Origin: a virus
Strand: one strand, 5' to 3'
Length of the DNA stretch: 39,106 bases
Virus genome (UHGV): UHGV-1488538
This document shows, piece by piece, positions 5,878-37,063 of the stretch. The notes beneath the pieces were generated by a model. The model was given only the letters and a program-made list of their open reading frames with translations. It was not told where the DNA came from and did not search any database. A program made the translations under genes and the position numbers. Position 1 is the first letter of the stretch, and each line of letters begins with the position of its first letter.

Positions 5878-6462
5878 TTATTGTTTGTTTTTTTCGTTCT
5901 GGTTGATGACAAATTCAATGTAACTTTCGATCTTTGCTTTCTCGGTTTCGGGTAACAATGCGTAGCGCGAGCGGTCATAGTTGATAGTCGCAGGGTCGTG
6001 CGGGTGAATCAGTAGTTCATATCCGTGACGCCCGAATGCGGATGCAACATTCTCCAGGGTGGAAATGGAAACGCTGACCTCATTGTTTAACAGGCGACTG
6101 ATTGTCACCTGGGCGACGCCGGATGCGCGGTGAAGTTTTCCCTGAGTTGAAAGGTCGCGGCTTTCACTCATCCAGCGTTCCAGGTTGTGAGCTGCCAGCT
6201 GACCAATGTCGCTTGGGCCGACAGGCTGAAAACCTTCCTGAGAAAGCGAGCGATCGATATCAAGCCAGTTACGGGGTTTATTGGCGGCAGCTTCAATTTT
6301 TCGCGCAACCTGGTCGCCGATAACCTTCTTGCCAAGAGCCCAGCGGTTTACCAGATTTGCCTGAGTTCCAAGTTTTTCTGCCATCCGCGTCTGAACACCA
6401 TTGAATTCACGGTCGATCAAGTCGTTGAGATTTTGCCTGCGGACGTCCTGGATACTTTTCAT
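5878..6462 (-). CDS. Immunity repressor, tandem HTH (XRE-like), no peptidase S24 domain
   Basis: 194 aa; two HTH-like segments (TRMAEKLGTQANLVNRWALGKK and ASGVAQVTISRLLNNEVSVSISTLENV); divergent from Cro-like gene with operator cluster between. Confidence 0.75.
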   Translation of the reverse strand: MKSIQDVRRQNLNDLIDREFNGVQTRMAEKLGTQANLVNRWALGKKVIGDQVARKIEAAANKPRNWLDIDRSLSQEGFQPVGPSDIGQLAAHNLERWMSESRDLSTQGKLHRASGVAQVTISRLLNNEVSVSISTLENVASAFGRHGYELLIHPHDPATINYDRSRYALLPETEKAKIESYIEFVINQNEKNKQ

Positions 6463-15063: not shown

Positions 15064-15140
15064 TGGCGTGGCATGCAGGATTCGAACCTGCGACCAACCG
15101 CTTAGAAGGCGGTTGCTCTGTCCAACTGAGCTAATGCCAC
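15064..15140 (-). tRNA. tRNA-Arg (anticodon UCU)
   Basis: 77-nt cloverleaf folded by hand on the minus strand: 7-bp acceptor stem GTGGCAT/ATGCCAC, D-arm GCTC/GAGC, anticodon stem ACCGC/GCGGT with loop CTTCTAA, T-arm GCAGG-TTCGAAT-CCTGC, encoded CCA. Confidence 0.9.
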
Positions 15141-29078: not shown

Positions 29079-31553
29079 ATGAGACAGGAATGTATACAAG
29101 CGGTTCAGCAGGCGGCGCAGCGCATGTTAACGGCGCGAGAAATACAGAACATTGAAGACCGCATTTATCGAAATATGCGCTCCATTGCTCGTGATGACCC
29201 TATGTCGTGGCGACAACTTTCCGAATCAGAGCGGCTATATCGAGCAGCACAATTGGCATCTGAAGAATTACAGCGAGAAGCGGCATTAAAGAAACGTCGT
29301 GTGGCTCTCACTATAGCCGCGCGTCAGAGATTGGATAAATTTATCAATAGCTATCAAGGGGCTGATGGGAAACTTGGCGCTCTTAACCGTACTATAGCTT
29401 TTAATGCAGACGGTAAATCTAATTTCCTCTCTGTTGAATCCAGAACAAAAGCCACCCGTGATTATGCATTGAGTCAATTGCAGGAGGCATTCGAAGCAGT
29501 TGATCCTCGCTTTTTTGGTCTGTTTGAAGATGAAGCGGGCGTACGTGACCTGGTATATGAAATGCGGGGGCAAAATACTGGCAATGCTAAAGCAAGAAAC
29601 GGTGCTAAGGCGTGGAGAGAAGTTACAGAGCTGCTGCGCCGCCGGTTTAATGATGCTGGTGGGGACATTGGCTATCTCGAAAACTGGGGGATCCCTCAAC
29701 ATCATTCTATGGAAAAGGTTGGGGCAGTATCAAAGGATAAGTGGGTTAGCGATGTTATAGGTAAGCTGGATCGCAAATATTATATCCGAGCCGATGGACA
29801 ACTGATGAACGATGCAGAGTTGTCTTCATTTCTTGGAGAGGCTTATAACACGATCGCTACTGGTGGGCTGAATAAGCTTACTGATACCGGAATGCGAATT
29901 TCCGGCGCACGTGCTAACCGTGGTAATGCATCACGACAGATACATTTCAAAGATGCAGATTCCTATCTGCAATATCAGCAACTTTATGGCGATCGCTCTC
30001 TATGGGAAATCATGGTCTGTCACCTGGAAGGTATCAGTAAAGATATTGCACTGGTGGAAACATATGGCCCAAACCCCGATCATGTTTTCCGCTCTCTTCT
30101 TGATCAGGTGAAGGCAGAAACGGCAACAGTTAACCCGAGTAAAACCGGTAAAGTCGAGCGGCTGGCGAACAACACAGAGAATCTGTACAACTTTATTTCC
30201 GGAAAGACACAGCCTGTAGCGAATCCGCACATCGCGCGATGGTCTGACAATATCCGCAACTGGCTGGTTGCCAGCAGACTCGGATCCGCGTTGCTGTCAT
30301 CGTTCTCTGATCTTGGAACCATGTATCTGTCTGCGAAGGTTACCAACCTTCCAATGAACCAGTTATTCCGCAACCAGCTTGAAGCTATGGACCCAACGAA
30401 CCGTACAGAACTTGCGCGGGCGCGCCGCGCTGGTCTGGCGATGGAATCTCTACTTGGCAGCGTTAACCGCTGGGCGATGGATAATATGGGGCCGTCAGTG
30501 TCTCGTTGGGCGGCAACGGCGGTAATGCGTGCCAGTGGGCTTACAGCATGGTCAGATGCGCACAAGCGCGCCTATGGCGTAACCATGATGGGAAGCCTGG
30601 GAGAAGTAGTGTCACGGACACCAGACCTTCGTAGCCTCGATGACTCTGATTTTCGTATCCTGAAAAGCAAAGGGATTACTGACACAGACTGGAGCGTATG
30701 GAAGCTGGCGAAACAGGAGGACTGGGGGAACGGTAATAATACGATGCTGACACCGGAAAGCATTATGCGTATCCCTGATTCAGCAGTTAAACATCTTGGT
30801 GAGCCTGAACGCGTGAAATTTGAGGCAATGCGTAAACTGCTCGGTGCCGTAACTGAAGAAGTTGATATGGCTGTTATTACACCGGGAGCACGTGAGCAAC
30901 TGATAACCGGTTCTGGTATTCAGCGTGGAACATGGAAAGGTGAATTAACGAGAAGTGTTTTCCTGTTTAAATCGTTCCCTATCTCGGTTGTTATGCGTCA
31001 CTGGTCACGCGCTATGGGTATGCCGTCTGCTGGTGGGCGTGCGGCATATATTGCGACGTTTATTGCCAGTACGACCATTCTTGGCGCTTTGTCGCAGCAA
31101 CTTAACGACCTTGCGTCTGGTCGTAATCCTCGAGAGATGACAGGAGAAGATGCCGCAAAATTCTGGCTTGGTGCTCTACTGAAAGGTGGTGGTCTTGGCC
31201 TTTACGGTGACTTTTTATTGTCAGATCACACTAGGTACGGAAGCGGCGCGCTGGCGTCGATGCTTGGCCCGGTAGCTGGTCTGGTTGATGACGTAGTGAA
31301 GATTGCTCAGGGCATACCGTTAAATGCTGTGGAAGGGAAGAGTGAGCAGACTGGTGGTGATCTGGTGAAGCTGGGGAAAGGTTTGATGCCTGGTGCGAAT
31401 CTCTGGTACTTGAAGGCGGCTCTCGATCACATGATCTTTAACCAGATGCAGGAGTATTTTTCACCAGGCTATTTGCGTAAAATGGAGCAACGTTCGAAGA
31501 AAGAGTTTAACCAGACATACTGGTGGCGACCACAGGATGTCACTCCGCAATAA
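29079..31553 (+). CDS. Internal virion/ejection protein (gp16-like)
   Basis: 824 aa; gene order. Confidence 0.55.
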   Translation: MRQECIQAVQQAAQRMLTAREIQNIEDRIYRNMRSIARDDPMSWRQLSESERLYRAAQLASEELQREAALKKRRVALTIAARQRLDKFINSYQGADGKLGALNRTIAFNADGKSNFLSVESRTKATRDYALSQLQEAFEAVDPRFFGLFEDEAGVRDLVYEMRGQNTGNAKARNGAKAWREVTELLRRRFNDAGGDIGYLENWGIPQHHSMEKVGAVSKDKWVSDVIGKLDRKYYIRADGQLMNDAELSSFLGEAYNTIATGGLNKLTDTGMRISGARANRGNASRQIHFKDADSYLQYQQLYGDRSLWEIMVCHLEGISKDIALVETYGPNPDHVFRSLLDQVKAETATVNPSKTGKVERLANNTENLYNFISGKTQPVANPHIARWSDNIRNWLVASRLGSALLSSFSDLGTMYLSAKVTNLPMNQLFRNQLEAMDPTNRTELARARRAGLAMESLLGSVNRWAMDNMGPSVSRWAATAVMRASGLTAWSDAHKRAYGVTMMGSLGEVVSRTPDLRSLDDSDFRILKSKGITDTDWSVWKLAKQEDWGNGNNTMLTPESIMRIPDSAVKHLGEPERVKFEAMRKLLGAVTEEVDMAVITPGAREQLITGSGIQRGTWKGELTRSVFLFKSFPISVVMRHWSRAMGMPSAGGRAAYIATFIASTTILGALSQQLNDLASGRNPREMTGEDAAKFWLGALLKGGGLGLYGDFLLSDHTRYGSGALASMLGPVAGLVDDVVKIAQGIPLNAVEGKSEQTGGDLVKLGKGLMPGANLWYLKAALDHMIFNQMQEYFSPGYLRKMEQRSKKEFNQTYWWRPQDVTPQ

Positions 31554-31687: not shown

Positions 31688-31772
31688 TATTCGGAATTGT
31701 ATTGTTCGGAAGAATAATAAAATAACTAGTTAATTTGTGGATTGGTGCTGTTTTTCCATGATAGGGGTAATT

Positions 31773-32153
31773 ATGAGAAAAGTATTTTTGATTTTTGGAT
31801 TTATGCTTCTCGTTGGATGCCAGTCAGCTGCACAGTTTGAAAGAAATATGCTTACGTGGCGCGGGCAGAGTATAGACGCAATGGTTCAGCAGTGGGGGTA
31901 TCCTCAGGGAGAGCTTACATCTCCAGATGGAAACAGAGTGTATGTTTACTCAAGCTCTGGTAGTTATAACGTACCACAAACCACAACGTATAATACTACG
32001 TCTAATCTAATTGGTAATACTATATATTCAAACACATACGCAACAACTGATGGCGGTTATACACTCCATTTCAGTTGCTCTGTTTACGTTGAGTTTGGTG
32101 CTGATAAGATTATTAAAAATGTTACATGGCGCGGTAATAATTGCGTTGCGTGA
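31773..32153 (+). CDS. Lipoprotein (signal peptide plus lipobox LLVGC), moron
   Basis: MRKVFLIFGFMLLVGCQS...; AGGGG RBS; AT-rich relative to surroundings; track ORF from 31737. Confidence 0.7.
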   Translation: MRKVFLIFGFMLLVGCQSAAQFERNMLTWRGQSIDAMVQQWGYPQGELTSPDGNRVYVYSSSGSYNVPQTTTYNTTSNLIGNTIYSNTYATTDGGYTLHFSCSVYVEFGADKIIKNVTWRGNNCVA

Positions 32154-32161
32154 CATGTCAC
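32150..32161. repeat. 12-bp palindrome GTGACATGTCAC (copy 3 of 3)
   Basis: Exact; overlaps lipoprotein stop codon, abuts terminator. Confidence 0.7.
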
Positions 32162-32162
32162 A

Positions 32163-32186
32163 GGCCGCTTTCGCGGCCTTGTTTTT
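32163..32186 (+). terminator. Rho-independent terminator (GGCCGC-tttc-GCGGCC-TTGTTTTT)
   Basis: 6-bp GC stem plus T-run. Confidence 0.7.
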
Positions 32187-32225
32187 AACGAATGCCACCG
32201 CCGCCAGGGCGGGAATCCGCAGACA

Positions 32226-32248
32226 CAAAAAAGCCCGCGTCGCGGGCT
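32226..32248 (-). terminator. Rho-independent terminator on minus strand (GCCCGCG hairpin plus U-run)
   Basis: Convergent with the previous terminator; follows the 211-aa gene. Confidence 0.65.
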
Positions 32249-32255
32249 TAAAGAA

Positions 32256-32891
32256 CTATTTTATTGGCAGCTTATGCTTTGAAATTATGGCCAATCTGTT
32301 TTGGAAGTTTTCCGCATCACCCCACAACCAGGTTTCACCTTTCTCAAGCTCTTCCTCGTTATTCATCTCTATCAGCTCGCATGTCATCATGTCGTAACCA
32401 TAGAGGTGGAGGCCAAGTTCCAGTGCGTCATACATGCGAGCCTGCCAGAACGACATGCCTTCATGAGTCTGGTTGCGATCTGACACGATGATATCGTACC
32501 GTTCCAAGAGGTAGTTCATGAAGATGATGCCGGCGAAATCATGAAGCACAGCACGATGCTTAGGCTTCTGGGTTCTCCATACCAATATCTGCGTGACAGG
32601 ACGGCAGTTAAGATAGCTGTCAGGCTGGATAATGACACGATTGTAATACACTACCTCTTCGGTGAGGTCATTTATCAATGACAGTTCAAAGTGCGCCTGT
32701 GGAATCTCGCCTTTCTTACGATCGTCTACACGGACAACGCGGTATCCAGGAGCCAGAGAAACGCCTTTGACATCAGATGTGACATCGTTGCCGTTCACTA
32801 ACTCTGAATACAGGGCGCGGTTGTCTGGAGTTTCGTTCAGATGAGCGAAAACCTCAGTTACCTTTGCCGGATTCAGCAGTTGTTGTGGCAT
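32256..32891 (-). CDS. Hypothetical protein (211 aa), immI-region gene of unknown function
   Basis: ORF track; own upstream operator sites. Confidence 0.6.
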   Translation of the reverse strand: MPQQLLNPAKVTEVFAHLNETPDNRALYSELVNGNDVTSDVKGVSLAPGYRVVRVDDRKKGEIPQAHFELSLINDLTEEVVYYNRVIIQPDSYLNCRPVTQILVWRTQKPKHRAVLHDFAGIIFMNYLLERYDIIVSDRNQTHEGMSFWQARMYDALELGLHLYGYDMMTCELIEMNNEEELEKGETWLWGDAENFQNRLAIISKHKLPIK

Positions 32892-33120: not shown

Positions 33121-33831
33121 TCAGAAGAACCCTGCCTTGTCGTTGATGTACTCCGCGTGGGTCTGGATATCACGCAGGCATTTGCTCACACCGACGATGT
33201 AGCAGAACATGGTGGTCAGCTCCGCCGCCGCGCCCGATACATCGTGCCCGTCTTCCTGTAACTGGTTCAGCAGATTCATCAGCAGTGAGTTCTCCGTCAG
33301 GCCGAGAACACCAGACGGCGAATGAATCAGGCTGCGGTAGCCGGGCTTCAGTGGGGCGCTGTAGGTTTTGTTCTCTATCTTCATCGCCTGCATTACTGCT
33401 GACGCCGTGGCGTTGGCTACCTGGTCGGCAACCATCTTTATGCGTTCTTCCTGCGGGAGCGAGTTTTTAATGTAACTTCCGGTGCGGCGGATCTGAGGAA
33501 GAACCTCACCTGTAACCCATTTACGAAAGCGGTAGGGGATAGTGCCTGGTGTCACTGCGTCGCGGCAGCGGAGGATCAGTGTGTAGAGGCCTGACTCGGA
33601 GATAATGTTGATCTCTTTTACTCGGCTGTCAAAAATTGCACGATGTTCATGCCCTATGTTGAACATAGACCTTTCATCATCATCCAGTTTTTCAAGTGCT
33701 TGGGTGACGTTTTGGATACGCAGCGCACTACAAACGTCTTGGGCTACAAACCATGGTTGGCCATCGATAATGATGGAACGGATAGGGTTAACAGATTCAA
33801 ATTTGAAGATGGCAGTTTGAGCATTAGCCAT
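33121..33831 (-). CDS. Antirepressor (Bro-N/KilA-N N-terminal domain plus C-terminal domain)
   Basis: N-terminus FKFESVNPIRSIIIDGQPWFVAQDVCSALRI is a classic Bro-N/Ant signature; start at ATG 33831 with GGAG RBS (track GTG at 33846). Confidence 0.8.
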   Translation of the reverse strand: MANAQTAIFKFESVNPIRSIIIDGQPWFVAQDVCSALRIQNVTQALEKLDDDERSMFNIGHEHRAIFDSRVKEINIISESGLYTLILRCRDAVTPGTIPYRFRKWVTGEVLPQIRRTGSYIKNSLPQEERIKMVADQVANATASAVMQAMKIENKTYSAPLKPGYRSLIHSPSGVLGLTENSLLMNLLNQLQEDGHDVSGAAAELTTMFCYIVGVSKCLRDIQTHAEYINDKAGFF

Positions 33832-33859
33832 GGTGGTTATCTCCACTTAGTGATTTTAA

Positions 33860-33890
33860 TCACCACCGCAACGCCAATTACTGGTGGTGA
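33860..33890 (-). promoter_or_regulatory. Leader hairpin TCACCACC/GGTGGTGA with alternative pairing to ACCACC at ant start codon
   Basis: 8-bp inverted repeat; a third complementary hexamer lies immediately 5' of the ant ATG. Confidence 0.4.
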
Positions 33891-33986
33891 ACTGGACAAG
33901 GTTGGCGTACCGGCCTAAGTGGTACCGGCGTCCTTTCGGACCCCTGCCCAGCCCACCATAATTCGGATATAGCTGTGCTTAACGCA

Positions 33987-34010
33987 TAAAAAAACCACGT
34001 CTGGCGTGGT
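33987..34010 (-). terminator. Intrinsic terminator within ant leader (ACCACG-ccaga-CGTGGT plus U7)
   Basis: Hairpin followed by 7 T on minus strand. Confidence 0.55.
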
Positions 34011-34026
34011 ATGCGCCACTTAGTAA

Positions 34027-34128
34027 CCCGGGACGCCAATCCCGGCACTGGATTTTGCCAGTGCCCGATTACTATGGCACAAGAGGAGTGCGATGTAAAT
34101 TTACTGCAAAGGTAAATATAAGCACTCC
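34027..34128 (-). ncRNA. Candidate structured RNA / cis-regulatory leader upstream of antirepressor
   Basis: Three hairpins (34083-34128 AGGAGTGC...GCACTCCT; 34044-34065 GGCACTGG...CCAGTGCC; 34028-34045 CCGGG...CCCGG) then terminator; no ORF. Confidence 0.4.
34101..34115. promoter_or_regulatory. Operator-like TTACT-GCAAA-GGTAA inside leader hairpin
   Basis: 1 mismatch. Confidence 0.4.
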
Positions 34129-34146
34129 TATTGGTAATTTCAAATC

Positions 34147-34419
34147 TTATCTGGTTTGTTTTCGTAATTGTTCGGCACAATAGTCGAGATGTGTTTGCAG
34201 ATCCTGCATAGACATCTGTGAGCTGGTGACGTAGTTAATCAGTGCAGTCAGTTCGGCAAGTGGGCCATCGACATTAAATCCATCCTTATCGAGATCCCGG
34301 AGTAATTTCATCAAGTGCGATCCCTCCACCAGTGACCTGACGCCTCCCGGCGTGTGAATCCTTTCGGTAAATCCCTCTTCCAGTGGATAGTGATACTGCT
34401 GCATCTTAATCTTCTCCAT
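34147..34419 (-). CDS. Small protein homologous to antirepressor C-terminal domain; LexA-controlled (candidate SOS antirepressor)
   Basis: 90 aa; about 45% identity by eye to Ant residues ~170-241 (IH.P.GV..L.E.S.LM.LL..L..DG..V.G..AELT, D.QTH..Y); LexA box directly upstream. Confidence 0.7.
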   Translation of the reverse strand: MEKIKMQQYHYPLEEGFTERIHTPGGVRSLVEGSHLMKLLRDLDKDGFNVDGPLAELTALINYVTSSQMSMQDLQTHLDYCAEQLRKQTR

Positions 34420-34424
34420 GCAAT

Positions 34425-34444
34425 AACTGTATATTTATACAGTA
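34425..34444. promoter_or_regulatory. LexA (SOS) box AACTGTATATTTATACAGTA
   Basis: CTGT-N8-ACAG with AT-rich spacer, near-consensus; overlaps putative -10 of small ant-like gene. Confidence 0.8.
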
Positions 34445-34481
34445 GCAAATAATTTGTTTGCTATCCAGCACGTTTTGCAAA

Positions 34482-34496
34482 TTACCTGAAAGGTAA
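34482..34496. promoter_or_regulatory. Operator TTACC-TGAAA-GGTAA
   Basis: Perfect palindrome between LexA box and tailspike gene. Confidence 0.65.
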
Positions 34497-34600
34497 TATC
34501 TATTCATATTCACAGTCTTTCTATCCATATATGGTTTTTTGGGTAATAGAATAACCAGATATGCGGCGCAACGGGTGCTGCGACTATCTGGAGATTTAAC

Positions 34601-37063
34601 ATGACGGTCTCAACCGAAGTTGACCACAACGAATACACAGGTAACGGCGTTACGACATCATTTCCGTATACCTTCCGTATTTTCAAAAAATCCGACCTGG
34701 TTGTTCAGGTGTCTGACCTTAACGGTAACGTTACAAAACTAGTGCTGGATGCTGGTTATACGGTAACAGGGGCGGGAACTTATAGTGGCGGTGCAGTGGT
34801 TCTTCCGTCGCCGCTTGCTGCTGGCTGGCGAATCACGATAGAGCGTGTGCTTGATGTGGTGCAGGAGACTGATCTTCGCAATCAGGGAAAATTTTTCCCC
34901 GAAGTTCATGAGGATGCATTTGACTACCTGACGATGCTGATCCAGCGATGTTTTGGGTGGTTCAGACGTGCATTGATGAAACCATCTTTGCTTGCAAAAT
35001 ATTACGATGCAAAGCAAAACAGAATATCTAACCTTGCCGATCCATCACTTGAGCAGGACGCTGTAAATAATCGCTCAATGCGTAATTATGTCGATGCTGC
35101 AATCGCCGGAGTTATTGGTGGTTTTGGTTGGTTTATTCAGTATGGTTCTGGAGCGGTATACAGAACGTTCCAGGATAAGATGCGTGATGGTGTCAGCATT
35201 AAGGATTTTGGAGCTCAAAATGGAATCTTAAATGATAACAAGGATGCTTTTACAAAATCATTACATTCGTTTAGCAGTGTTTTTGTTCCGGAAGGGGTAT
35301 TCAATACATCTTTAGTTTCTCTTTCACGTTGTGGCTTGTACGGAACAGGTGGGGGAACGATAAAACAGTATGACAGAGATGGTAATCATCTGGTTTTTAA
35401 CATGCCCGATGGTGGCATGCTTAGTACGCTAACAATTATGGGAAATAAATCAGATGATAGTGTGCAGGGACACCAGGTGTCATTTTCAGGTGGCCATGAT
35501 GTATCGGTTAAAAATATCAGATTTACAAATACGCGAGGACCAGGATTTAGCTTGATCGCTTATCCGGATAATGGTATTCCGTCAGGTTACATTGTTAGAG
35601 ATATAAGAGGAGAGTATTTAGGGTTCGCAAATAATAAAAAAGCAGGTTGTGTGCTTTTTGATTCATCGCAAAATACGCTAATTGATGGTGTGATAGCCAG
35701 AAATTATCCTCAGTTTGGTGCAGTGGAACTTAAAACAGCAGCAAAATATAACATTGTCAGCAATGTTATTGGTGAAGAGTGTCAGCACGTTGTTTACAAT
35801 GGAACTGAGACGGAAACTGCCCCAACGAATAATATCATTAGCAGTGTAATGGCTAACAACCCAAAATACGCCGCAGTAGTTGTTGGCAAGGGGACTGGTA
35901 ACCTGATTTCGGATGTGCTGGTTGATTACTCTGAATCGGACGCAAAGCAGGCGCACGGCGTCACCGTTCAGGGAAATAATAATATTGCCAGTAATATTCT
36001 AATGACTGGGTGTGATGGGAAAAATGAATCAGGAGATCTGCAGGCATCTACAACCATTCGTTTCTTAGATGCTGCACGCAGTAATTATGCGTCAATATTC
36101 CCCATGTATAGTTCTTCCGGCGTGGTTACCTTCGAGGAAGGGTGTATCAGGAACTTTGTTGAAATTAAACATCCGGGTGACAGAAATAATATTCTGAGTT
36201 CTGCATCAGCGGTGACTGGTATTTCCAGTATAGACGGCACTACAAATAGCAATGTTGTTCACGTCCCTGCGCTTGGTCAGTACGTTGGGACTATGTCAGG
36301 GCGTTTTGAATGGTGGGTTAAATATTTTAACCTTGCTAACCAGACGCTTGTTTCTGCAGATAAATTCAGAATGCTTGCTGAAGGCGATGTATCTCTGGCT
36401 GTGGGAGGCGGTATAAGTTCGCAATTGAAATTATTCAATAGTGATAATACTAAAGGCACTATGTCGCTAATAAATGGAAATATTCGAATATCTACTGGAA
36501 ATTCAGAATATATACAGTTTTCTGATTCAGCCATGACACCATCGACAACGAATACTTATTCTCTTGGGTTGGCTGGTCGTGCATGGTCGGGGGGATTTAC
36601 CCAGTCAGCGTTTACGGTGCTGTCCGATGCGCGTTTCAAGACTGCTCCAGAGGTTATTGATGAGAAAATACTGGACGCATGGGAAAGAGTGGAATGGGTT
36701 TCATACCAGTACCTTGACAGGATCGAAGTGAAAGGTAAAGACGGAGCAAGATGGCACTTTGGTGCAGTTGCGCAGCATGTTATCAGTGTATTTCAGAATG
36801 AAGGCATAGATGTGTCACGACTGGCATTTATCTGTTATGACAAGTGGAATGAGACCCCGGCAGAATACAGGGATGTGACGGAAGAAGAGCATTCTGCAGG
36901 AGTTTACCCACTTATACAGACAAAGGTTCTGGTACGCGAAGCCGTCGAGGCTGGTGAATGTTACGGTATCCGTTATGAAGAGGCTCTGATTCTGGAATCT
37001 GCGATGATGAGACGCAGGGTTAAAAAGCTGGAAGAGCAAGTTTTGCAATTAACAGGGAATTGA
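34601..37063 (+). CDS. Tailspike with beta-helix depolymerase-like centre and C-terminal self-cleaving chaperone (S74-like) domain
   Basis: 820 aa; C-terminal LSDARFKTAPEVIDEKILDAWERVEWVSYQY... and coiled-coil tail match the intramolecular chaperone autoproteolysis domain. Confidence 0.8.
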   Translation: MTVSTEVDHNEYTGNGVTTSFPYTFRIFKKSDLVVQVSDLNGNVTKLVLDAGYTVTGAGTYSGGAVVLPSPLAAGWRITIERVLDVVQETDLRNQGKFFPEVHEDAFDYLTMLIQRCFGWFRRALMKPSLLAKYYDAKQNRISNLADPSLEQDAVNNRSMRNYVDAAIAGVIGGFGWFIQYGSGAVYRTFQDKMRDGVSIKDFGAQNGILNDNKDAFTKSLHSFSSVFVPEGVFNTSLVSLSRCGLYGTGGGTIKQYDRDGNHLVFNMPDGGMLSTLTIMGNKSDDSVQGHQVSFSGGHDVSVKNIRFTNTRGPGFSLIAYPDNGIPSGYIVRDIRGEYLGFANNKKAGCVLFDSSQNTLIDGVIARNYPQFGAVELKTAAKYNIVSNVIGEECQHVVYNGTETETAPTNNIISSVMANNPKYAAVVVGKGTGNLISDVLVDYSESDAKQAHGVTVQGNNNIASNILMTGCDGKNESGDLQASTTIRFLDAARSNYASIFPMYSSSGVVTFEEGCIRNFVEIKHPGDRNNILSSASAVTGISSIDGTTNSNVVHVPALGQYVGTMSGRFEWWVKYFNLANQTLVSADKFRMLAEGDVSLAVGGGISSQLKLFNSDNTKGTMSLINGNIRISTGNSEYIQFSDSAMTPSTTNTYSLGLAGRAWSGGFTQSAFTVLSDARFKTAPEVIDEKILDAWERVEWVSYQYLDRIEVKGKDGARWHFGAVAQHVISVFQNEGIDVSRLAFICYDKWNETPAEYRDVTEEEHSAGVYPLIQTKVLVREAVEAGECYGIRYEEALILESAMMRRRVKKLEEQVLQLTGN

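Follow-up and report, generated by a model that had tools for sequence, protein, structure and literature searches.

The virus genome UHGV-1488538, a stretch of 39,106 nucleotides (nt) that was analysed over its whole length and is called the window below, holds two neighbouring minus-strand genes between positions 33,121 and 34,419. The larger encodes a protein in which an N-terminal Bro-N domain is joined by a linker to a second domain, and the smaller encodes a free-standing protein, Ant, which resembles that second domain. This locus raises the question of how one phage came to carry the same domain in two antirepressor genes, and whether the two products are directed at the same repressor. 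In our reading, to which we assign a probability of about 0.6, two antirepressors sharing the Ant domain converge on one repressor, Rep: the small one would bring in an SOS input through LexA, and the large one a second input, connected with infection or anti-immunity, that Rep and two RNAs, C4 and IsrK, would gate.

When the translations of the two open reading frames (ORFs) were compared by BLASTP, 33 of 78 aligned positions were identical (42%), with no gaps and E=8e-21, and the alignment took in essentially the entire small protein and the last ~80 residues of the large antirepressor. This bears out the initial annotation, which had estimated by eye about 45% identity over about 70 residues. 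The similarity was also significant between profiles, hhalign aligning the profile of the standalone proteins with that of the fused C-terminal domains over 78 columns at 99.8% probability and E=1.2e-27. By phmmer the small protein (residues 7-89) matched 5D50_E, the 'Anti-repressor protein', with E=1.7e-47, and the large protein matched the same chain with E=1.3e-13 over residues 160-236 in the numbering of the 241-amino-acid (aa) ORF, that is 155-231 of the 236-aa protein. PHROG 450, 15539 and 1760 were matched by both proteins. Nineteen positions are invariant in standalone and fused Ant domains alike, following the pattern Y..P....IH.P.GV..L...S.L...L..DG..V.G..AE...Y...H, and the polar residues H17, S29, D41, E51 and H72 are among them. 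A compositional or coiled-coil artefact as the source of the similarity was ruled out by the common motif IH-P-GV...S-LM-LL...DG-V-G-AE...Y...H.

The gene for the large antirepressor occupies 33121-33831 (236 aa and a stop). Its Bro-N domain (PF02498; residues 17-112 of 236, at 33496-33783) scored 71.4 bits over a cut-off of 25.6, with E=1e-19, and no other Pfam match was found in the protein; the Ant-type C-terminal module (residues ~151-236, at 33124-33381), assigned by its homology to small Ant, matched no Pfam or NCBIfam family. We take ATG 33831 as the most likely start, and not GTG 33846, because the closest full-length homologues have the matching length. The small gene, the orthologue of Ant of Salmonella phage SPC32H, lies at 34147-34404 (85 aa) in an ORF that can be extended to 34419. 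Here the second ATG, at 34404, is most likely the start, because a GGAG stands 9 nt upstream of it and homologues measure 85-86 aa; the upstream ATG at 34419 overlaps the Shine-Dalgarno sequence.

That both proteins are of the antirepressor kind, as the initial annotation held, is supported by experiments in relatives: on the one side SPC32H Ant and its complex in PDB 5D50, and on the other ORF4 of phage ZX5 (PMC9782041). Small Ant is 89% identical to SPC32H Ant, and its AlphaFold2 (AF2) model matched 5D50_H with a template modelling (TM) score of 0.83 on the target. The AF2 models of the two window proteins show the same three-helix pattern, with helices at 19-27, 30-40 and 46-84 in small Ant and, at low confidence, at 172-180, 183-193 and 201-235 in the large protein.

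Core gene and accessory cassette

Escherichia phage phiV10 of the genus Uetakevirus, which comprises epsilon15-like podoviruses, can be aligned with nearly the full length of the window at 89-98% identity. The antirepressor region lies in a variable stretch, with the last internal-virion-protein gene (29079-31553) on one side and the tailspike gene (34601-37063) on the other. Small ant adjoins the tailspike gene in every one of the 35 phage records that matched, which come from Escherichia, Salmonella, Klebsiella and Enterobacter, and the ratio of non-synonymous to synonymous substitution rates (dN/dS) of small Ant against its Enterobacter and Salmonella orthologues is 0.045-0.06. Judged by these comparisons, the small gene is the known core inducer of the phage group and not a derived copy, and the headline of the initial annotation, that the C-terminal domain had been duplicated as a separate gene, has to be turned round: it is the small gene that belongs to the conserved core and the fused copy that rides on an accessory cassette.

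This cassette runs in the order isrK small RNA (sRNA), C4 antisense RNA and large ant. It is lacking in SPC32H and epsilon15, and the prophage at guaA of E. coli GF4, with a 100% identical Rep, has small ant only. A match to the locus was found in 535 of 5426 complete E. coli genomes, and in an evenly spaced sample of the ranked matches about four-fifths had the cassette. Both RNAs exceed the Rfam gathering scores in the window and in six related loci (cited below by L numbers where they must be told apart) that carry a fused ant; in each of these six the pair precedes the fused ant, or, in L007, an ORF just upstream of it. Neither RNA was found in the two loci with small ant only or in L012, which holds a truncated fusion remnant. 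The Bro-N fusion occurs with the same synteny in Enterobacter.

The N-terminal part of the fused protein is itself exchanged. Among E. coli prophages that share these flanks, the N-domain can be AntA (PF08346) or ORF6N (PF10543) instead, the C-terminal ~85 residues staying at least 97% identical, and the point of exchange falls where the homology to small Ant begins. Phage TL-2011b (L018 2561-3745) has, behind an Arc-like repressor gene, a 314-aa antirepressor in which a P22_AR_N domain (PF10547) is joined to a C-terminal domain identical to that of the window; this is the third Ant-domain gene, and the third type of control, in one phage, and the Arc-like gene placed immediately upstream of an antirepressor gene recalls P22 immI. 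In HEMP4 tblastn found three places for the Ant domain.

Average-linkage clustering of 208 distinct Ant-domain sequences gave two deep groups with ~40% identity between them; single linkage had lumped all Ant domains together. Clade A, to which small Ant belongs, has 119 members and no fusion, 115 being standalone and 4 bearing N-terminal extensions of 21-60 residues, which we read as upstream start calls. Clade B, with the C-terminal domain of the large protein, has 87 members, 73 of them fused. In a Klebsiella/Raoultella element (L012 5652-6288) an apparently 'standalone' clade B protein of 95 aa is a 5'-truncated remnant of a Bro-N::Ant gene: the frame upstream of it continues as ...TGRYVRDELSPADKA, and it lies at the edge of an element encoding primase/DUF927 and SSB proteins. 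It may be noted that small Ant of Klebsiella phage ST512-KPC3phi13.3 (L005 3495-3755) has DGHDVSGAAAEL where E. coli small Ant has DGFNVDGPLAEL; in E. coli DGHDVSGAAAEL is typical of the fused clade, so that it is either an ancestral state or the result of exchange between the paralogues. The census of fusions is based on the large-protein search, the survey of E. coli genomes and individual loci, as searches with the small protein or the domain profile returned mostly standalone proteins; the best 150 matches of a search of all libraries with a mixed-alignment profile were mostly Bro-N proteins and held few Ant-domain architectures.

The two deep clades and the accessory nature of the cassette argue for old paralogy and domain shuffling and not for a local duplication; a recent tandem duplication is ruled out by the ~40% identity, the separate clades and the variable presence of the cassette. 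The initial annotation had offered 'domain duplication or recruitment': recruitment holds, as the shuffling of an old paralogue, and duplication within the phage's own genome does not. By its sequence relationships the fused copy is an old paralogue on a mobile, shuffled cassette.

The same distribution bears on what the common domain does. A tblastn search of 50,697 phage genomes (E<=0.001) gave 34 records with the clade B domain, those whose lineages were looked up being Uetakevirus or unclassified Caudoviricetes, and every listed record with a fused copy also had a second Ant-domain match. Since the N-domains belong to general Pfam families, the restriction of the domain to phages of the Rep/Ant type is our chief argument that it is the C-terminal domain that ties the protein to Rep-type immunity. 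One could argue instead that the common domain is only an oligomerisation scaffold, a tetramer core, and that the target of the large protein is set by its N-domain or elsewhere, making the two proteins different effectors; we hold this unlikely. SPC32H Ant is indeed described as tetrameric, with two Rep dimers bound to it (PMC9638917), the low-confidence fold of the fused domain as a monomer is what would be expected of an obligate oligomer, the clades are only ~40% identical, and Bro-N is usually considered a DNA-binding domain (discussed in PMC9782041). A scaffold would leave the large protein free to act on host DNA, on a host factor or on the repressors of other resident prophages, and Salmonella antirepressors acting on non-cognate repressors are documented (PMC3121763); such targets seem doubtful to us. 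One would not expect to find a generic oligomerisation module solely in phages that have small Ant as well, targeting by the N-domain is hard to reconcile with four unrelated N-domains on an unchanged C-terminal domain at the same locus and with the same Rep, and the 19 invariant positions across both clades include polar ones.

Inputs to the two genes

The two genes are under different control, as the initial annotation had supposed. Small ant is preceded by a LexA (SOS) box, TACTGTATAAATATACAGTT (34425-34444, minus strand), which ends 7 nt before its Shine-Dalgarno sequence. The near-consensus core of the box, CTGTATATTTATACAG (34427-34442), is the sole AT-rich CTGT-N8-ACAG site in the window, and the box is kept across the genus, as its alignment in SPC32H, TL-2011b, phiV10 and a Klebsiella phage shows; no confident -35/-10 hexamers could be assigned to the small ant promoter. 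In SPC32H induction proceeds through LexA-controlled Ant, which inactivates Rep (Kim & Ryu 2013, as summarised in PMC7380047). The C-terminal domain of the large protein has no LexA box upstream and is fused behind Bro-N rather than free-standing.

Upstream of large ant there lies instead a set of RNA elements, all on the minus strand. A candidate sigma-70 promoter of isrK-C4-ant was found by promoter scan at 34071-34099 (TTTACA, a 17 nt spacer and TG-CATAGT); its -10 hexamer ends 7 nt before the 5' end of isrK, and the promoter is invariant in 7 loci. The isrK sRNA (33988-34064; Rfam RF01394, 67.7 bits, gathering score 50) ends in an intrinsic terminator at 33994-34010 followed by a U tract, and it is followed by the C4 antisense RNA (33880-33963; RF01695, 66 bits, gathering score 45). 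The fold of C4 agrees with the Rfam model and exposes a hairpin loop, CCACUUAG, and a single-stranded ACGCCAA. The leader of large ant (33841-33877) holds the two target boxes, a2 UUGGCGU (33871-33877) and b2 CUAAGUGG (33843-33850), of which b2 overlaps the Shine-Dalgarno GGAG (33841-33844). Complementarity is exact in both pairs, CCACUUAG of C4 with CUAAGUGG of the leader and ACGCCAA with UUGGCGU, and the C4 and leader boxes co-vary in 6/6 loci, with four variants of the b box and two of the a box. C4 is directed straight at the ant Shine-Dalgarno, and the window has no icd-like upstream ORF coupled to ant; a 168-aa upstream ORF occurs in the ORF6N variant only. A 100-aa ORF at 33878-34180, between the two ant genes, was rejected as spurious, the stretch encoding the isrK and C4 RNAs.

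IsrK carries UUGGCGU and CUAAGUGG, identical to both C4 target boxes of the ant leader, and the boxes of isrK, C4 and leader co-vary together in 5 of 6 loci (the window, L004, L005, L007 and L010). The P1 'a1/b1' boxes upstream of c4 would be the equivalent of the IsrK boxes. From these matches IsrK looks like a C4 target mimic or sponge. In Gifsy-1, IsrK supplied in trans activates the translation of anrP, in an account that does not mention C4 (PMC4825925), and a sponge activity against C4 would therefore explain that effect. In the two AntA-fusion loci L006 and L008 (2227-2412 in each), C4 and leader match each other, and the isrK boxes (UUGGCGU, CUAGUAGG) no longer match C4 (AGACCAA, CCACUUAG); judged from the boxes, a recombination joint seems to lie between isrK and C4, and the expectation is that IsrK-C4 pairing is lost in these prophages.

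The candidate promoter of isrK also has an operator-like site. A degenerate palindrome, TTTACC-TTTGC-AGTAAA (34100-34116, minus strand), directly abuts its -35 hexamer; related loci have ATTACC-N5-GGTAAA at this position, and the flanking TTACC / GTAAATTTACA is invariant in 7 loci. A perfect palindrome ATTACC-N5-GGTAAT (34481-34497, no strand assigned) separates small ant from the divergently oriented tailspike gene, 39 bp upstream of the LexA box core, and is kept in SPC32H, TL-2011b, phiV10 and a Klebsiella phage. With up to 2 mismatches this sequence occurs 16 times in the window against 1.0 expected, and 18 times in SPC32H (L015) against ~1; the window positions listed are 215, 5743, 5805, 6517, 6902, 8848, 8910, 12255, 12273, 15462, 32931, 33032 and 34481. 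The palindromes flank rep on both sides (as clusters in SPC32H), sit at operon starts, are often paired 62 bp apart, and precede the terminase, head, tailspike and lysis operons. On account of its number and placement ATTACC-N5-GGTAAT is a good candidate for the Rep operator, and if Rep does bind it, the late operons too would be repressed directly.

The proposed common target

Rep is encoded at 5878-6462 (minus strand), has two helix-turn-helix domains and matches 5D50_A, 'Repressor', with E=4e-42; it is 42% identical to the Rep of SPC32H, and ~55% over the first 60 residues by hand count. We infer that both proteins act on this same repressor, and likewise that the fused Ant domain binds Rep and when the large protein is expressed. 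LexA would keep small ant off and DNA damage would switch it on, after which small Ant would assemble into a tetramer and pull Rep from its operators, by homology to the SPC32H Rep-Ant crystal complex. The large protein would be a second, immI-like antirepressor, with a promoter bearing a Rep-operator-like palindrome followed by isrK, C4 and ant, in which the C4 boxes would pair with the ant leader and cover the ribosome-binding site. Expression would set in when Rep is missing or has been inactivated and C4 is outcompeted, the likely occasions being infection, the superinfection of a lysogen of a related phage, or positive feedback that follows SOS. The C-terminal Ant domain of the large protein would serve as the module for Rep recognition and oligomerisation, and the N-domain would be exchangeable among Bro-N, AntA, ORF6N and P22_AR_N.

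A phenotype is known for a close relative of the large protein. ORF4 of ZX5 is 81% identical to it overall and identical over the last 160 residues, and its over-expression brought lysogens down from ~10^9 to 10^6 (~1000-fold), reduced rep mRNA by 75% and promoted the lytic pathway, so that the authors treat ORF4 as the ZX5 antirepressor (PMC9782041). The small gene in the ZX5 record is annotated 'hypothetical protein', as it is in most genomes.

Several observations weigh against the proposal of a common target. The whole of ORF4 was used in the ZX5 experiment (PMC9782041), and its activity is not assignable to either domain. The two Ant domains are only ~40% identical, so their specificities may differ, and the palindrome at the isrK promoter of the window has 3 mismatches to the consensus. 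In the AF2 monomer the C-terminal Ant domain is of low confidence (pLDDT, the predicted local distance difference test, 35-58), while Bro-N reaches 80-88. Small Ant is 89% identical to its SPC32H counterpart but Rep only 42% (window 5878-6462 against L015 33739-34335 for Rep; window 34147-34404 against L003 2495-2755 for Ant), and an Ant conserved beside a diverged Rep implies that sequence conservation is a poor guide to binding partners; either the feature of Rep that Ant recognises is structural and has been conserved, or Ant is under some other constraint. Finally, in phiV10 (L002 19551-20230) a 16-bp deletion, ATCTGCTGAACCAGTT, shifts the reading frame within the C-terminal Ant domain, so that the gene is annotated as two, p23 (194 aa) and p22 (29 aa), and the O157 typing phages 9 and 10 match the domain in two pieces, with coverage and identity as in phiV10. 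Because phiV10 and typing phages 9 and 10 are catalogued phage isolates, this suggests that the C-terminal Ant domain is dispensable, at least in the phiV10 lineage.

These broken copies could be taken to mean that the C-terminal domain has no function and is simply carried along on a mobile cassette, its similarity to small Ant reflecting ancestry only, and prophages that are otherwise near-identical and lack the cassette would fit such a view. We find it highly improbable in the face of the full-length homologues of 233-236 aa, which occur at 70-100% identity in at least six genera including Escherichia, Salmonella, Citrobacter and Enterobacter. The dN/dS of the large protein is 0.05 in Bro-N and 0.23 in the C-terminal domain, values that show purifying selection, compared with ~1.0 in the adjoining linker; the upstream RNA control elements are conserved and co-vary, and the ZX5 phenotype (PMC9782041) again speaks against a loss of function.

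Small ant and large ant are neighbours that read in the same direction, and no terminator was predicted between small ant and isrK, which makes their co-expression after SOS plausible. The paralogous domains have a helix pattern and conserved core positions in common, and might then co-assemble, the fused protein entering mixed tetramers with small Ant and poisoning the SOS inducer or tethering it through Bro-N. This is quite improbable in our estimate: at ~40% identity mixed assembly is often inefficient, and over-expressed ZX5 ORF4 promoted the lytic pathway (PMC9782041), unlike a poison. The missing terminator, together with the copies of both C4 target boxes in IsrK, also makes possible a wiring of the two inputs in series, which we put forward tentatively and consider rather unlikely. 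LexA cleavage would yield an ant-isrK transcript with a 3' end that soaks up C4 as a target mimic, so that Bro-N::Ant is translated; the removal of Rep by small Ant would de-repress the isrK promoter, and mixed tetramers could form. If true, this would be an SOS-triggered, RNA-sponge-gated feed-forward loop committing the prophage to induction.

Some features of the window lie outside this circuit. Its gene order is permuted relative to phiV10, with the integrase at the left end as in integrated prophages, and we take it to be a prophage of E. coli; in relatives that have this integrase, insertion is at the 3' end of guaA (PMC9782041, and as seen here). Two genes next to the antirepressor region are without counterpart in phiV10: 31737-32153 (plus strand), whose 138-aa product matches PHROG 3716 (function unknown), and 32256-32891 (minus strand), whose 211-aa protein matches PHROG 1349 (function unknown) and which is preceded by two of the operator-like palindromes (32931 and 33032). 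In relatives the slot of these extra genes (31737-32891) is taken by a YafO-family toxin or by different cargo. A tRNA gene (15067-15140, minus strand; Rfam 73 bits) with the anticodon loop CUUCUAA, the anticodon being read by eye as UCU (Arg), separates the terminase module from the portal module; SPC32H has a tRNA-Arg at that position.

Relation to known systems

The components of this locus are all of known kinds, namely SPC32H Ant, C4/IsrK and Bro-N. Their combination appears to be new in the searchable literature: a structurally characterised antirepressor has been taken over as the unvarying C-terminal module in a set of interchangeable antirepressors, with control by LexA, RNA or Arc. 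No paper connecting the small and the large antirepressor was found in a literature search outside which the key SPC32H papers lay. The locus bridges two bodies of literature between which there is no citation, one with the small protein as 'the' antirepressor (SPC32H) and one with the Bro-N protein in that place (ZX5), and the sole part common to both proteins is the domain with a solved structure in complex with the repressor. For Bro-N, AntA, ORF6N and P22_AR_N antirepressors it offers a testable assignment, in which the C-terminal domain recognises the repressor and the N-domain is exchangeable. It also predicts that ~1 in 10 complete E. coli genomes have such a locus, SOS-triggerable and in most cases RNA-gated as well, which would be relevant to antibiotic-driven induction and to superinfection between related prophages.

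The closest likeness is to the Ant/Rep system of SPC32H, which has the orthologous small gene between the tailspike and internal-virion-protein genes, the LexA box and a homologue of Rep. SPC32H and epsilon15 differ in lacking the second, fused Ant paralogue of the window phage, and the Rep of SPC32H is the diverged one discussed above. Phage regulators assembled by domain shuffling, with N-domains such as Bro-N, KilA-N, AntA, ORF6N and P22_AR_N, form a known kind. The large protein shares with them the exchangeable N-terminal modules set on alternative C-terminal modules, but its C-terminal module is homologous to a structurally characterised, free-standing antirepressor.

For the RNA-controlled half the nearest model is the immI operon of P1 and P7, which is said to consist of a C1-controlled promoter, the C4 antisense RNA, icd and ant1/2, with C4 acting through two boxes. 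As in that operon, the window has a C4-family RNA co-transcribed with its target, two boxes pairing with the leader and ribosome-binding site of the antirepressor frame, an operator-like site at the promoter, and an upstream RNA that repeats the target boxes. The window differs in having no icd-like coupled ORF and a Rep-type repressor, not P1 C1; P1 Ant1/2 and the large protein of the window are set apart by Pfam content (Bro-N only), not by direct alignment. An outline of the P1/P7 immI operon is given in PMC8201110.

The isrK-orf45-anrP locus of Gifsy-1 resembles the window in that isrK, with a leaky terminator, lies upstream of the antirepressor gene and an RNA of ~80 nt is processed from 'orf45' at the position of the window C4 (PMC4825925). 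The window has no 45-codon ORF overlapping the start of ant, only a 14-codon frame that ends inside C4; the published Gifsy-1 model does not invoke C4 (PMC4825925), and the likeness was judged from the layout of the locus. The GfoA-type antirepressors of Gifsy phages and the Tum type of phage 186 are not proposed as relatives: the Gifsy genes belong to a dinI operon (PMC3121763), another context, and both types were set apart without sequence comparison.

The nearest parallel to the architecture as a whole is N15, for which an SOS-controlled AntC and an immA operon controlled by a small processed RNA are described (Mardanov & Ravin 2007; Ravin et al. 1999, both as cited in PMC4488713). There, as in the window, one temperate phage has an SOS-controlled antirepressor and a separate antirepressor operon under the control of a small RNA. 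What distinguishes the window from N15 is that its two antirepressors have a homologous effector domain, that the RNA is of the P1-type C4 kind, predicted to block translation, and that the repressor belongs to another family.

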